A DNA stretch of 60,129 nucleotides, counting the filler, from Globobulimina sp. (taxonomy: Eukaryota), in assembly GCA_003354225.1 (NCBI GenBank). It is 14 parts of 14 records of this genome, joined end to end, with 100 filler letters (N's around TTAATTAATTAA, not from the genome) between each part and the next. Parts side by side here need not be neighbours in the genome. Positions count along the whole stretch, not along the records: positions 25,833 to 30,034 come from PIVH01001476.1; positions 30,135 to 34,336 come from PIVH01001477.1; 12 more parts are not named here. One strand, 5' to 3'. Under the pieces are notes generated by a model. That model made no database searches. It saw only the letters and a list, made by a program, of their open reading frames with translations, and was not told the DNA's origin. Positions 19,264 through 30,135 of the stretch are shown piece by piece. Made by a program: the position numbers and the translations under genes. Numbering within the stretch: position 1 is the first letter of the stretch; every line of letters starts with the position of its first letter.

Positions 19264-20138
19264 CTATTTTAAGCTGTTTTTAATTAAATTGTTAATGAAG
19301 TATTCAAATTTGTTCATAAAAAGACAAATCGGTGGTAATCGATTCAAATTATTATACGAAGGCTTTTTTATATCCAAATGTGTCTGGCAAATTCCATAAA
19401 TTGCTTCATTGTCCAATACAACTGAGATCTCTGTGTGGTCCAATAACCAATGAGTTGCTAATAATGCATTGTATGGTTCAACAACACATGTTGATATTAT
19501 TGGTGATGGATATACTTCAAATCCACACTAAATACACAATATTATGCATGCAGTGCATTTAAAGTGAATATAATATTTTTTAACTTTTGATTTCTTTCTG
19601 TAATCCACAGCAATGCGTTCCAAGATCAATGCTCCCAAACCGCTGCCAGTCCCACCACCAACAGAATGATTGAAAACAAAGCCTTGAACATTATCACAGT
19701 TATCCACCAACTTTCGTATGCGATCATTGACTTTGTCGATCATCTCTTTACCGACGGTGTAATGTCCACGGGCAAAATTGTTGGCTGCGTCTTCTTTGCC
19801 AGAGAGTAAGAATTCATTGTTGTAGATTTCTTTGAGTTTGCTGCTTTTTATATCATCGATTACATTTGATTCGAGGTCTACCTGTCATGCATATTTAATA
19901 TTATTTGTTTTTGTTTCTATCCAAACATGTATCATACCATTAGGTTGCGAGGGACGTATTTCCCAGCATTTGTTTCATCGAAAAATGTGCAAAATGCTCT
20001 GTCAAACCGGTAATGAGAATAGTTAACTATGGTACCTTGGCTGTTTATATTGTGCTCGCCACAATATTGGTCCCACACACAATTTCCTAGTTGAACCCCA
20101 CATTGACCAATAGAAACTGATAATACTTCTCGTGGCAT
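19264..20138 (-). pseudogene. Alpha-tubulin of Retaria alpha2 type, truncated after about residue 230; introns 19937-19882 and 19584-19528
   Basis: [68 protein letters not shown]. Homology stops after NLNRL at 19336 and the frame runs on to a stop at 19264. Confidence 0.9.
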
Positions 20139-20339
20139 ATTTACGTACACTCAAATCAGAACCTCAGTCCTCAGTACATTTTTTGGTTGATTGCATCAAA
20201 AAAGGTCAAAGTTTGAAAAACCTAGTTGGTAATATTTATCATATTTAGTTATGCAATACAGTATGTATAAATTAATCGATTGCATTCAAACAATGCATTT
20301 TGCAGTTTCTTCTGCACCTTTAAAAGCTAGCGCCGGATT

Positions 20340-24500: not shown

Positions 24501-25732
24501 ACTTTATACTGATCCCGTGGAATGAAGAAGAGGAACGGCGGCGACATATGTTATTACAGACGAATTTCATGAACGAATTACCACAACGCAAACAAGAGAA
24601 AATTAACTTATTTTTGCGTATTTTAGGGCTGGACGTGGAGAATAATGTGATTCATCAATCCATTTTGATCTCGTTGCTGTTCGAGGATCCATTTGCAAAT
24701 TATGCCTTGACCTTTGATAATATCCTCAAAATGGTGGCTATTTTCTTTCGCGTCAAATCCGACATACCCGTCATCCTCATGGTATGTATGCCTTTTATTG
24801 CATTGTTTGCATATAATACCTACGCAACACAAAAAGGGCGAAACTGGCTGTGGCAAAACTTCGTTATTACGATATTTGGCCAAAGCAGCATCGGTAGAAT
24901 TTTGCCAAGCCGATGTCCACGGCGGCTTTACAGCGACTCATATTCGCAGCAAAATGTCGGAGTGGATCCAGATTGCCAAACGCAAACAAAATGACGTCGC
25001 AGTCAACACCACATCGCAGGACGTCTGGGTCTTTTTAGACGAAGTCAACACCTCCCCCGATATTGGATGGTTTAAAGAAATTGTCTGCGATCACAGTTTA
25101 GATGGCATCCCCTTGCCATATAACATGAAAGTGATCGCCGCGTGCAACCCATACCGGCGTCGCAAACTAAACATGGACATTGGTGACGAGAAAGGCAATA
25201 AAAAACACAAGAAAATCATCAATGAACAGTTTAAAAATTGGATGGCAGCGTCTGGTTCGGATGACCCTTTGGCGCAGTTTATGTATCGAGTGTACCCGTT
25301 GGCCCCCACTATGAAAGAGTATGTGTGGATGTTTGGCAGTTTATCAGCGTTGGACGAGCTGCAATATGTATGCGAGATGGTGAATAATACGGTACGTAAA
25401 CTGCCGCGAGACGTACAGAAGAATTTCAGTGACTGGCAACGCAAACGTTTGATTGATGCCATTGTCAAATCGCAGGAGTTTGTACGCGATGTATTGCGTG
25501 ATGCGGCGTATGTATCTTTGCGTGATGTCGCTCGCTGTTTGCGTATTATTGAATGGTTAATGAGCAATGAGCTAAAATTTGCGACCTCCAATTCTTGGAT
25601 CGAACGTGCCACGGTTCAAGCTTTAGCATTGGTGTATTACTTTCGGTTGGATAGTATCAATCGGATTCGCTACGCCAAGCGCATCACGCCCGATGTATGT
25701 GGCCGCATTGCCTGGTTTAATAACCGCGACTT
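21530..25732 (+). CDS. RNF213/mysterin-like dynein-related AAA+ ATPase, internal fragment; intron 24782-24836
   Basis: TSKEVGMGKS, IYHLDIS, YALTFDNILKMVAI..IPVILM|GETGCGKT, VHGG, VFLDEVNT, IAACNPYR, YRVYPL, VSLRDV. A 55-nt GT-AG intron joins the two ORFs. Confidence 0.88.
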
Positions 25733-26106
25733 NNNNNNNNNNNNNNNNNNNNNNNNNNNNNNNNNNNNNNNNNNNNTTAATTAATTAANNNNNNNNNNNN
25801 NNNNNNNNNNNNNNNNNNNNNNNNNNNNNNNNCCATAATTCAAAATAATTTACCTTTATCGAAGGCACTACCCACAAGGATAAATATTAGAACTGACATC
25901 ATGAACAACCACACACCAAGTGACAAATGTCCTAACTGATTGTGTACCATAGATTTCACCCTATTATACCTTTTGTACATAATGAATGATTTTGTTATTC
26001 ATAAGTTTTATTGATTGTGCAAGTATCAACAGTGAATAGATAATGAACAGAGTAAATACTTATATGCATCAAGTATATAGTACATTATAAACAAGTATTA
26101 CATGAT

Positions 26107-26544
26107 TCAACAGAGAACAATTTTTTCGAGTAGATCAAACAAAGCTTTATTAGTGGTTTTCTTAAGATGACAGGTTTTCCCTTGATTGAAATTCAAACAT
26201 TTCATCAGTGAGTTTTTCTTGTGACACAAATCTTTTCCATACCAATGAAAGTCTGAATGATTTTGCCAGATCAGATTGAATGACTCAATGTATGAGTCAG
26301 GAAGGGGGAAACGGATTTGAATTTTAGCAGTCAGCTGATCAGATAGAGTAAAGTTTGGAGTTGTTTGCACAACTGTCACTTTGGTCACAGAGAATGAGCT
26401 GATAAACAGTGTTAGACCACTTGACAGAAAGAACGTAGGTATGGAACAGTACAAAAATATTTTGATTGTTACACCACCACTGCCACCATTACTAGCAGTA
26501 GAATTTGATCGACGAAAGAATTGAGACAACAGAGTCAACAACAT
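26107..26544 (-). CDS. Hypothetical ORF downstream of the Maverick integrase
   Basis: 145-aa ORF with no recognisable motif. Confidence 0.3.
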   Translation of the reverse strand: MLLTLLSQFFRRSNSTASNGGSGGVTIKIFLYCSIPTFFLSSGLTLFISSFSVTKVTVVQTTPNFTLSDQLTAKIQIRFPLPDSYIESFNLIWQNHSDFHWYGKDLCHKKNSLMKCLNFNQGKTCHLKKTTNKALFDLLEKIVLC

Positions 26545-26595
26545 TGTAGTGAACAGACCGCACAGTATGGTTACAAATATATGAATGACAGGAAA

Positions 26596-27822
26596 TCATT
26601 GTAAATTTTTATTTCTAGTCCCACGAGACAGAGTTTTCAGTTCCGATGCAGAAATCCATGAGTCATTAGATCTGTTAAAACCAGCCCAGGATACTAAAAG
26701 CATTGTTTTTCTTCCAACCTTCTTTTTTCTCCATACTTTTTGCACTTCAAAAAGATCTTTATCTGGATCCACATGAATTTGTTGCAATTCTGTAGCATAC
26801 GCCCTTCCTTCCAGCAGCTTTCCTTTGTGGTCCTCCAAACCATACATGGGAGGTTTTTGTCCATGTGACACATCCTTCACAGTGAAATACTCCCTGGTCC
26901 AATTACCACTACCAGTGCTTTCCTTTTCGAATGTTCCCTTAAGCCTGGACAGTCTCACTTTATCTCCAACTTTGGGGTCATTTCTTTTGGGTATAACTTT
27001 TGGTTCTTCTTCCACTTTGGTACCATAAAGTTTGCGAAAAGCTGCACGGTCAGCATCAAATTTTGTCATGATGTCAATTGGCTTTTGACCAGTTATTCTG
27101 CTTGTTGATTTATTATAATGTGAAACACACAGTTTCAGTGCTTCCAGCCATTTGTTAGTGTTTTTGGCATTTTGATACCGTCTTATGTAGGTGCGAGCCG
27201 TTCTTATAAAGCGCTCGCTTTGCGGCGCCTTCGTCTTGGAAGATGTCGTATAGAAGTGTACACCATTCTTCTTGAAAAAATTTCTTGTGCTGGCACTTAC
27301 ATGTTCGCCAGCTTTGTCCCCTAATGCTTTCTCTGGCTTGTAACCAGTTTTAAAAATAGTATCCAATGCATCTTGTATATTCTTTGAATTGTTGTGCGAA
27401 AGAGGCACACAAAAGACAAAACGGGAATAACTATCCACAGCTATGAGAGCAAAATTTATGGATTTTCCAGTGTCAGAATCCTTTTCAGGATTCTGTCTTT
27501 GGTCCATGAGGTCAAATTGCATCAATTCTGTCTTGAATTGAATCTGGAAGCTATTTCTCTTATAATGTTTCCTGGCTGGTTTCCAGAGAGTGTAAGTAGG
27601 TTGCGATCTACAAAATGTGCAAGTTTAAAGGAGTACTACAGCAACAATAAAAAAGACTTACTTGAGCCATTCTTTAACCAATTTTATTGTAATACTTTTA
27701 TTTAAAGATTTGGCTGCTTTGTACAGAGGCATAATACCACGCAAAGATGATTTATTCTTTTCATTGTAATATAAGTTGTCCAATAATTGTTTCTGATTGT
27801 CGCTTATCACCACTTGAGCCAT
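26596..27822 (-). CDS. Maverick rve (c-)integrase with C-terminal chromodomain; exons 27822-27662 and 27607-26596 (390 aa)
   Basis: LYYN..LYKAAK..VKEWLK|SQPTYTLWKPARK, QFDLMD, VDSYSRF, GDKAGE, SERFIRT, YN, VGDKVR, FEK..NWT, chromodomain MLLVSWAGFNRSNDSWI. The 54-nt intron contains an in-frame stop. Confidence 0.92.
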
Positions 27823-28370
27823 ACTCTGGGCTTTTTGGTCGGAATCAGTTTTTCAGCAGCTTTTACAGGAGTGGCCGGTGTCTCTATTGCAGTGGCAGCA
27901 GCTGTACCAAGAGACTGACGAATTCTGGTATTTCGGATCAGGAGAATAGGAAAATTATTCTCTTTTAAAAGTGTAATTAGCTGGTCGAGTCCTTTCAATT
28001 GGGTCTTTTGAAATGGAAGCAACAGTGCTGAGATGAGGTCGGTTATATTTGAATCTGTAATTCTCTCACCGCCAACAGTGATTTCACCAGTTTTTGAGTT
28101 CCAAGAAAGTTGTTCTGATGTAAAACGTTGACGAAACGCAGACAACAATTGAATTGCGCCGTTTTTCAAACGTTTAGGCAGAAGTTCGAGTAAATCTGGT
28201 TGAGTTTCTGGCTCTGGATCTACCAGCACTTGTTGAACTTGCCGAGTGACCAAGTCTTCAGTTTCTGTTACAGGCTGTTTAACTGTCTCTGTGATAATAT
28301 CGTCAGGCACAGCTTTTTGCAATAGACGTTGAAATTCTGCTTCGGAAACCAATATCATTCGCTCACACAT
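27807..28370 (-). CDS. Maverick accessory protein
   Basis: MILVSE start region and SWNSKTGEITVGGERITDSNITDLI, resembling (from recall) the conserved ORF upstream of integrase in animal Mavericks; overlaps both neighbours. Confidence 0.75.
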   Translation of the reverse strand: MCERMILVSEAEFQRLLQKAVPDDIITETVKQPVTETEDLVTRQVQQVLVDPEPETQPDLLELLPKRLKNGAIQLLSAFRQRFTSEQLSWNSKTGEITVGGERITDSNITDLISALLLPFQKTQLKGLDQLITLLKENNFPILLIRNTRIRQSLGTAAATAIETPATPVKAAEKLIPTKKPRVWLKW

Positions 28371-28684
28371 AGCAAAAGGGCAAGCTTGCTCAGATTTTTA
28401 ACCAATGATGGTTCTGATTTCAGGGCTGCCCGTCTCTTCGCGGCAGTTTTTGATTTGTCGATGATTATGTAGAGCTGCTTTTTGTATGGTTTCAGAGTTT
28501 TCTTGTCTTTAGCAGGTAGTTGGTAATCCTTGTCAGCCACCAAATTTAGAGTAATCTCTGACAAAAAGTTAATCCGCTCTTTGGACGAACGAGCAATCAA
28601 ACCAGTTATTTCTTTCAAAGACAAAGTTTCGGCTACAGCTTGAAGTAGTGGAGTGTTATCGCTGAGACAACCGCTCATGACCAT
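28355..28684 (-). CDS. Small basic Maverick accessory protein
   Basis: FLSEITLNLV...KKTLKPYKKQL...KRR resembles a small conserved Maverick ORF; its stop overlaps the next gene's start. Confidence 0.65.
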   Translation of the reverse strand: MVMSGCLSDNTPLLQAVAETLSLKEITGLIARSSKERINFLSEITLNLVADKDYQLPAKDKKTLKPYKKQLYIIIDKSKTAAKRRAALKSEPSLVKNLSKLALLLCVSE

Positions 28685-28844
28685 GACAAATACAACAATG
28701 ACTGTGAGAAGGAAATTGTTATGTTTTATGCGGAATGTTGCATCATTTAGTATTTACAATTTTATTGTTTTATATATTTACACATTAGAAACAAATATAC
28801 TGTACAAAGCCGGCCCACACATTATAAATACAAATAACATACAA

Positions 28845-30033
28845 TTACAAATCATTTTGAGTCACATCGCCATTTTTATCAATCTGCACACAGCTCCTAT
28901 ATTCAGCTATAACAAGACCATTGAGGCTTTCTTTCAAATTATCCTTAAATCGTACTTCGACACTAATATTTCCTTCGGATGGCATAGCCAAATTGCTCAT
29001 GTCAGCACTCAAATCCGTGCCAAAGATCGAATTTCCTCCACCGAAGCTTTCATATGTGATGGGGCATATTGGCTGTGGGCTGTTTGTCAACCGTAGTGCT
29101 CTAAGTAGACCCATATAACTCATTACATAATCAGCAGATTCGAAATCGGGGGTGAAAGCATTGAACGAAGTAGGAACACCATCAATGTAGAATTGCACAT
29201 AATTCAACTTATATTTAGCAGCATCAAACACCATTGGGTTGTTATGGAAACTACCGCCACTCACACTGATAGATGGTACAACGGCAAAGAAGAGTCGCGT
29301 TGGCAGTTGACCTGAAAGCAGTATTTTTATGTTTGTATTTATAAAACCAAATATTTCTTGCATTACCAGCGAACAAATTCAGTTGTTTGATACTACTGCT
29401 CCCCATTGGAATGAGAAAGTGACGAAGTTCTGTTCGCATGTAGGGATACAGTGCAGTCTGGGTGGCCAATCTATGATTGATCAAAGAAACCGATTGTGGA
29501 GCCACTGTCACCCGGCGAACAAATAGTGTGCAACTTCGGATGACGATTTTATAGGTGTCAGCGACATTTGCTGGTGTCAACAGACTGAAAGCTGCATCAT
29601 TTCTGTCAAATCGAATTGTAATTTTCACGTTTGGCAGTAATAGCTTGCTGCAGTTGAAGAAGTCATTCTGCAGACGTGTGCACATTGTAACCAATCGACT
29701 TTTTTCGATCAAACTGTGTCGCCAAGTGGGAAAAGTAATTTCTTCCCCAGTTCTCAGGAAAATTTCTTCTGCATAACCTTGTGTGTGTCGAAGTGCCCCA
29801 GACTTGAATTCATCACCGAAATTCAGCAAGTTGCACAAATAAGCCAACTGAGGATAATTGGCCATTTCATTGCCAACGGTGATGTGACCGAGGGTTAGCA
29901 CGATCTTTGAAAACAATGAATCCATGAACCCTACAACAGGGGATACCTGAAACATATCTAACATGGAATCATTTGTCAGGAGTGAGAAATTCCAATAATA
30001 TCCTACCTTTTCTTTGTCTGTATCATCCAGCTC
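28845..30033 (-). CDS. Maverick/Polinton double-jelly-roll major capsid protein, 5' partial; introns 29366-29312 and probably 30006-29947
   Basis: VSPVVGFMDSLFS, YPQLAYLCNLLNF, LFVRRV, ALYP, NLFAG|QLPTR, NPMVF, YIDG, PDF, DLS, GNISVEVRF, AEYRSCVQID. Confidence 0.9.
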
Positions 30034-30135
30034 CNNNNNNNNNNNNNNNNNNNNNNNNNNNNNNNNNNNNNNNNNNNNTTAATTAATTAANNNNNNNNNN
30101 NNNNNNNNNNNNNNNNNNNNNNNNNNNNNNNNNNA

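Follow-up and report, generated by a model that had tools for sequence, protein, structure and literature searches.

Probable short GT-AG introns in the capsid and integrase genes of a likely Maverick/Polinton-type element from Globobulimina sp.

We analysed a stretch of 60129 bases from the Globobulimina sp. assembly GCA_003354225.1 (hereafter the window), in which one contig, at positions 25833-30034, carries a cluster of virus-like genes. This contig is likely to be a fragment of a Maverick/Polinton-type element whose capsid and integrase genes have gained short GT-AG spliceosomal introns that are host-like in size and composition. Directly observed are three properties of the segments concerned: homologous proteins lack them, homology is restored exactly when they are cut out at their boundaries, and the exons that they separate are open. 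The window as a whole consists of 14 contigs of 4197-4210 bp, ordered by decreasing length and joined by artificial N44-TTAATTAATTAA-N44 linkers. Because the contigs are unlinked, adjacency across a linker is meaningless and any finding that spans one is an artefact. With a linker at either side, the element occupies one entire contig of 4202 bp (25833-30034), and the genes that flank it in the window are not its physical neighbours. On the minus strand of this contig we found a capsid gene cut at its 5' end, two small overlapping open reading frames (ORFs), an integrase gene probably of the rve-chromodomain type and a membrane-like ORF.

The integrase gene is divided into two exons on the minus strand. 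Exon 1 (27662-27822, GC content 0.31) starts with an ATG at 27822 and encodes the N-terminal domain, while exon 2 (26596-27607) includes the stop codon and encodes the rve core and a probable C-terminal chromodomain. They are separated by a segment of 54 nucleotides (nt) with the termini GTAAGT..TTGTAG (27608-27661, minus strand, GC 0.31), which corresponds to a phase 2 intron (AA|A). Read in frame, this segment yields K-stop-VFF...L-stop-T..., that is, two stops. The preliminary description of this DNA had proposed a 54-nt GTAAGT..TAG intron containing a stop at this position; the coordinates and motifs are indeed present and removal of the segment results in an ungapped match to P0005. This relative, the one that comes from an NCBI record, is uninterrupted at the site and matches both flanks in the window without a gap. 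Exon 1 aligns ungapped with residues 1-50 of a second relative, P0003 (E 5e-8), and also matches the N-terminus of P0005 (residues 2-32, E 2e-4). P0003 carries 17 extra, unconserved residues exactly at the 54-nt site. They begin with K-Y... and end with ...Y-R and, judged from these residues and not from the DNA of P0003, probably represent a phase 2 GTAY..YAG segment that has been read through. P0003 has a further insertion near residues 310-330, about 19-20 residues long and likewise unconserved, within the conserved FEKES..G motif region. It is found in none of the six other rows of the integrase alignment (A3) and is possibly another intron read through.

The capsid gene is interrupted by a segment of 55 nt (29312-29366, minus strand; GTAATG..TTTCAG, phase 1 (G|GT), GC 0.24), the length of which is not a multiple of three. 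It lies between exon B (29367-29946, minus strand, 580 nt, GC 0.44), which contains no stop, and exon C (28845-29311, minus strand, GC 0.41), which includes the stop codon 28847-28845 and is 50% identical to the relative P0012, with which it is collinear up to the C-terminus. The capsid exon gave no match in a word-based search of longer proteins, and the family was then found by exhaustive HMMER search, in which exon B retrieved 1296 proteins at E<=1e-3, 145 at E<=1e-10 and 4 at E<=1e-30. In an alignment of such relatives (A1), exactly one residue lies between exons B and C in 61 of 64 homologues; two residues are present in two homologues and three in one. The single junction residue is glycine in 49 of those homologues, as the split codon G|GT predicts. 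BLASTP gave a concordant picture, with both capsid exons matched within one protein in 96 of the 150 relatives listed. The projected gap between the exons is exactly one residue in 70 of these 96. In the other 26 it is 0 (10 proteins), -8 (6 proteins) or lies between -52 and +30, as is usual for the ends of local alignments. The relative P0010 is 89% identical to the window protein over 166 residues and its ORF enters the site of the capsid intron and stops 11 residues on. The extension resembles the read-through of the window segment but is shorter, which is the picture expected of a homologous intron that evolves freely.

In their homology and boundaries as well as in size and composition, both the 54-nt and the 55-nt segment behave like introns. 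The 55-nt stretch is missing in the homologues of alignment A1 and the 54-nt stretch in P0005. The capsid and integrase exons together span about 2.2 kb and contain no further stop or frameshift. Every exon piece translates open, in accordance with what had been stated for the spliced genes beforehand. That the segments are removed from RNA, i.e. that splicing actually takes place, we infer from these sequence comparisons.

A third segment, of 60 nt, lies further upstream in the capsid gene (29947-30006, minus strand; GTAGGA..TTTCAG, GC 0.33). It is in frame and stop-free and is preceded by exon A (30007-30034, minus strand), which is cut at its 5' end; the capsid gene is truncated here by the end of the contig and not by a readable gap. 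If the segment were coding, it would add 20 residues without counterpart in the full-length relatives of the alignment. BLOSUM62 scores against relatives were obtained for the nine residues that precede the segment and for its own last nine. The values were +18 versus -3 for P0012, +9 versus -2 for P0016 and +13 versus -7 for P0020, so the nine residues before the candidate intron fit these three proteins by far the better. Among all 61 usable relatives the spliced reading scored better in 35 and equal in 4; the figure is no higher than 35 because the region is variable. In P0011 the ORF begins a short way before the 60-nt site, and its first residues read like an acceptor. The coordinates, termini and in-frame character given for this segment in the preliminary description were thus borne out, and the proposal that it is an intron appears probable on the strength of P0012, P0016 and P0020.

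Evidence for the nature of the element came from the capsid. Residues 25-221 of the window query align to about residues 90-285 of relatives of about 440 amino acids (aa), which indicates that the window capsid gene lacks its first 65-90 or so codons and that the spliced protein would comprise about 440 aa. A length of 400-480 aa is found in 100 of the 150 capsid relatives listed out of the 1296. The pieces of the window capsid gave no match of meaning in Pfam or PHROGs, and Pfam DJR-like_dom was matched only weakly, by one relative (E 0.0079). We chose the homologue P0012 (442 aa) for structure prediction; its identity is 43%, with values of 40% and 50% for the two rows that represent the exons in alignment A1. 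With the 66 rows of A1 as input, its fold was predicted with a predicted local distance difference test score (pLDDT) of 93.3 and a predicted template modelling score (pTM) of 0.89. Compared with solved structures, the model matched the double jelly-roll major capsid proteins (MCPs) of Singapore grouper iridovirus (E 1.3e-16, the best value), PBCV-1, Sputnik and mavirus, with E 1e-16 to 1e-13 for these four, and also that of Faustovirus. Among predicted viral structures the best match was an uncharacterised protein of Cotesia sesamiae Mombasa bracovirus (20% identity, E 9.4e-25), and capsid proteins of adomavirus (LO7), adintovirus, MELD virus and virophages came next. Cotesia bracovirus genomes carry a Maverick insertion. 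A language-model atlas offered a further lead, a cluster in which 37% of the members carry DJR-like_dom and which is most often arthropod. The capsid is a double jelly-roll MCP of the Polinton-like kind as far as the modelled fold of the homologue P0012 can speak for the window protein, and the earlier assignment of the capsid to this kind, for which a structure prediction had been suggested, agrees with the outcome.

For the integrase, the rve assignment likewise held and that of the chromodomain is probable. Exon 2 passes the Pfam cut-off for rve (E 1.1e-8, 35.7 bits against a cut-off of 32.6). Its Chromo match (E 0.0032, 17.8 bits) lies below the cut-off of 25.1 bits, a threshold that two relatives in the alignment exceed (P0005 with 28.9 bits, P0003 with 25.4 bits); these also pass the rve cut-off. 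In alignment A3 the D, D and E columns of the integrase are conserved with P0003, P0004 and P0005, and two tryptophan columns of the chromodomain region are invariant.

The gene order on the minus strand is capsid, a 160-nt spacer with AATAAA, ORF132, ORF196, integrase and ORF162. ORF132 (28355-28684, minus strand) encodes 109 aa from an ATG at 28684 to a stop at 28357-28355, and ORF196 (27807-28370, minus strand) encodes 187 aa from an ATG at 28370 to a stop at 27809-27807. Both overlaps that had been noticed earlier are present, each of 16 nt, one between the stop of ORF132 and the ATG of ORF196 (28355/28370) and one between the stop of ORF196 and the integrase ATG at 27822 (27807/27822). 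ORF196 appears to be a real gene of the element's lineage because three relatives, 55-76% identical, align with it (A6); its structure prediction gave an unusable model (pLDDT 42.5). ORF162 (26107-26595, minus strand) is an open frame with hydrophobic stretches and a putative gene. It shares the reading frame of the integrase, from which a TGA stop alone separates it, and the hydrophobic stretches are at its start. Read-through from the integrase into ORF162 is not suggested, since the relatives of the integrase terminate at the same stop. None of ORF132, ORF196 and ORF162 has a match at a meaningful E-value in Pfam or PHROGs, and none of them was matched there to a packaging ATPase of the FtsK-HerA type, an adenain-like cysteine protease or a penton protein, which may lie beyond this 4.2-kb fragment.

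For comparison with cellular introns we used three that could be set by protein conservation on other contigs of the window. These are a 55-nt intron (24782-24836, plus strand), removal of which restores a Walker A motif, and introns of 56 nt (19937-19882, minus strand) and 57 nt (19584-19528, minus strand) in one tubulin-like gene. Their GC content is 0.23-0.33. The three segments of the element have a GC content of 0.24-0.33, versus 0.40-0.44 in the neighbouring capsid exons and the main integrase exon. With lengths of 54, 55 and 60 nt the introns of the element thus fall into the size and composition class of the cellular introns, of which these three on other contigs served as comparators. 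A crude scan of all contigs for GT..AG pairs gave shortest candidates of about 46-98 nt per junction and was too noisy for a distribution. Apart from chance matches of at most 18 nt, the window shows no other copies of the three introns, and their likeness to one another is within about 1.2 to 2.2 standard deviations (SD) of shuffled sequences. Taken together, these two results give no sign of a family of introners, in what is a small sample.

Of three runs for this sample, X1 alone also contains the element, and the X1 contigs include a second near-identical copy or allele that differs from the window at seven coding positions. Six of the differences lie in ORF196 (four synonymous, two conservative) and one, a change from His to Asn, in exon 2 of the integrase; the pattern is a weak hint of constraint. 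The X1 contigs are DNA-like; one spans the integrase intron unspliced, and none shown spans the capsid intron. A contig of 1059 nt from this run overlaps 25833-26075 and reaches about 816 nt past the contig end at 25833, so the public data hold more of the downstream end of the element. Longer loci related to the element were found neither in IMG/VR (three scans) nor in JGI metagenomes (two scans).

Several observations weigh against the interpretation as an intron-bearing Maverick/Polinton-type element. None of the runs listed for the sample is recorded as RNA, and the X1 contigs carry the integrase region in the form in which genomic DNA would. The cellular introns end in AAG, CAG and TAG, not in the TTTCAG of two of the element's introns, in a small sample of three, and the contigs that supplied them have no physical link to that of the element and might stem from a different organism. 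Being in frame and without a stop, the 60-nt segment could be coding; the three closest full-length relatives alone are informative on this point, and 35 of 61 favour splicing. Genes for pPolB, the ATPase, the protease and the penton protein as well as terminal repeats are not on the 4202-bp contig, which contains neither end of the element.

The missing host flank is also what would be expected if the contig belonged to an exogenous or episomal virus of the adintovirus type in the sample, for which introns would be normal as in other nuclear DNA viruses. The appearance of adintovirus and MELD virus proteins among the structure matches and the restriction of the sequence to just one of the three runs, X1, point in the same direction. 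An integrase of the rve-chromodomain type, however, is built for integration into chromatin, and we regard the episomal explanation as unlikely, though deserving serious consideration. Quite improbable is, in our view, a dead and decaying copy, in which the segments would be random disrupting insertions with GT..AG ends by coincidence. Most genomic copies of vertebrate Mavericks are mutationally degraded and predictors call their insertions 'introns', according to the part of the vertebrate study available (PMC8097293), and RNA is absent from the record of the runs listed for our sample. Random insertion nevertheless does not account for GT..AG termini that coincide in all three segments with the exact points at which ungapped homology is restored, for lengths of 54-60 nt throughout, in the same size class as the cellular introns elsewhere in the window, or for about 2.2 kb of capsid and integrase exons without other stop or frameshift. 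Moreover, the same sites are interrupted in relatives that are only 30-89% identical in protein.

The compact layout of four to five genes on one strand with two overlaps of 16 nt is viral and argues against the idea that the host co-opted genes derived from capsid and integrase, which then gained introns like any other host gene. Introns are typical of cellular genes, and host genes derived from the Ginger1 integrase that retain transposon introns are documented in the text available from PMC2836005. For capsid, ORF196 and integrase alike, however, several diverged relatives occur on short contigs other than this one, as expected for a multi-copy or multi-lineage element, and the near-identical second copy or allele in X1 also speaks against domestication, which we consider very improbable. 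We give equally little credence to delivery of the introns by introners, i.e. intron-generating transposons. Maverick-Polinton-like elements of dinoflagellates are populated by such introners, as described in the portion at hand of PMC11957031, but the introns studied here have no further copy in the 60-kb window, which as a small genome sample is weak evidence, resemble one another hardly more than shuffled sequences do, and at 54-60 nt are very short for a transposon.

Under the preferred interpretation as an intron-bearing Maverick/Polinton-type element, one strand would hold, with partial overlaps, the genes for a double jelly-roll capsid protein and an rve-chromodomain integrase together with two small genes specific to the lineage, and this lineage would have acquired short GT-AG introns in the capsid and integrase genes. 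Transcription would occur in the nucleus, and the integrase pre-mRNA would lose 54 nt to the spliceosome, the capsid pre-mRNA 55 nt and probably the 60 nt as well. The products would be an integrase of about 390 aa and a capsid protein of about 440 aa, both collinear with intronless relatives. The element itself may be integrated and active.

Among the relatives, the ORF fragments of P0010, P0011, P0013, P0015, P0001, P0002 and P0006 begin or end at intron sites, which fits the earlier suggestion that searches limited to ORFs would recover such elements in fragments. Some of these ends mark sites at which the window is uninterrupted. One is located in the integrase before the RFIRTAR motif in P0001 (83% identical), P0002 and P0006, and one in the capsid before the GY.E motif in P0011, P0013 and P0015. 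P0011 in turn does not have the 55-nt capsid intron. From where these fragments begin and end we tentatively suggest a Maverick lineage with turnover of introns in its core genes, a possibility that we rate as less likely than not. If the further sites are introns, at least five spliceosomal introns would have been gained or lost among close relatives.

The remaining contigs of the window contain cellular sequence. Single-exon ORFs reach 1401 aa, and the source genome appears intron-poor, with introns very short, and AT-rich (GC 0.26-0.41). The gene that holds two of the comparator introns (19264-20150, minus strand) is alpha-tubulin-like and divergent; it has two or more short introns and seems to end abruptly after exon 3. 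The 55-nt comparator belongs to a very large gene that fills the neighbouring contig (21482-25732, plus strand) and consists of an open frame of 1170 aa followed by an exon for an AAA-type ATPase. Another contig (12922-17124, plus strand) is filled by the frame of 1401 aa, which encodes an Ion_trans_2 domain, two cyclic-nucleotide-binding domains and an Ion_trans domain, an unusual channel architecture. For a TRP-like channel on a contig other than that of the element the commonest recorded phyla in the nearest clusters are animal ones, Cnidaria, Nematoda and Mollusca, at 0.87-0.90. Other cellular ORFs in the window encode generic eukaryotic domains, and scans of the 60129 bases with Rfam and for tRNAs found nothing. 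The structure matches of the capsid, the atlas cluster and the TRP-like channel are hints, and as such a lead, towards an animal type of element or an animal host.

The element resembles known Mavericks/Polintons in its double jelly-roll capsid of about 440 aa, its rve integrase with a probable C-terminal chromodomain and its compact, overlapping array on one strand, and differs from them in that its core genes carry spliceosomal introns. That most such elements lack introns in their core genes, as stated in the preliminary description, is how they are described in the available parts of three studies. The ORFs of intact vertebrate Mavericks are intronless, which the authors call consistent with Kapitonov and Jurka 2006 (PMC8097293), a nematode Maverick has intronless core genes with introns confined to cargo genes (10.1101/2022.07.12.499685), and in a large survey of protist genomes a prokaryotic gene finder was chosen because endogenous viruses 'do not contain introns' (PMC10120064). 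Spliceosomal introns have been reported for Maverick-Polinton-like elements of dinoflagellates, in the accessible text as insertions of introners (PMC11957031 / PMC12166617). These proviruses are likewise virus-like elements of the same broad kind, but their introns are copies of transposon families, whereas the three in the window element are unique, unlike one another and 54-60 nt long. Ginger1 transposase genes contain one to four GT-AG introns, as far as the text at hand goes (PMC2836005). Ginger1 thus combines a gypsy-like DDE integrase gene and GT-AG introns in a DNA transposon; unlike the window element, in which the integrase shares one array with a capsid gene, it is of the cut-and-paste type and has no capsid gene. 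The adintoviruses and MELD viruses that appeared among the structure matches are animal-associated Polinton-like viruses with double jelly-roll capsid and retrovirus-like integrase, and the portion of the respective paper available contains no passage on spliceosomal introns or splicing (PMC8502044). In the full-text literature that we searched, a scope outside which supplements and subscription journals fall, we found no account of a Maverick whose capsid and integrase genes contain short, unique spliceosomal introns.

Judged by its sequence, the element would be of the Maverick type with core genes that need splicing, which is unusual for such elements. Its lineage would break the assumption of intronless genes behind the prokaryote-style gene calling of endogenous Polinton-like viruses, as worded in the available text of PMC10120064. 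Because the relatives in the databases are fragments of 100-300 aa that start or stop at intron sites, such elements may be under-counted or scored as degraded. Host-sized introns in both the capsid and the integrase gene speak for transcription in the nucleus and for reliance on splicing by the host, and introns that differ between close relatives would help to gauge how fast introns are gained and lost. Should the suggested turnover prove true, the lineage would be one of the rare cases in nature in which recent intron gain can be dated, and would bear the sign of a long nuclear residence that depends on the spliceosome.

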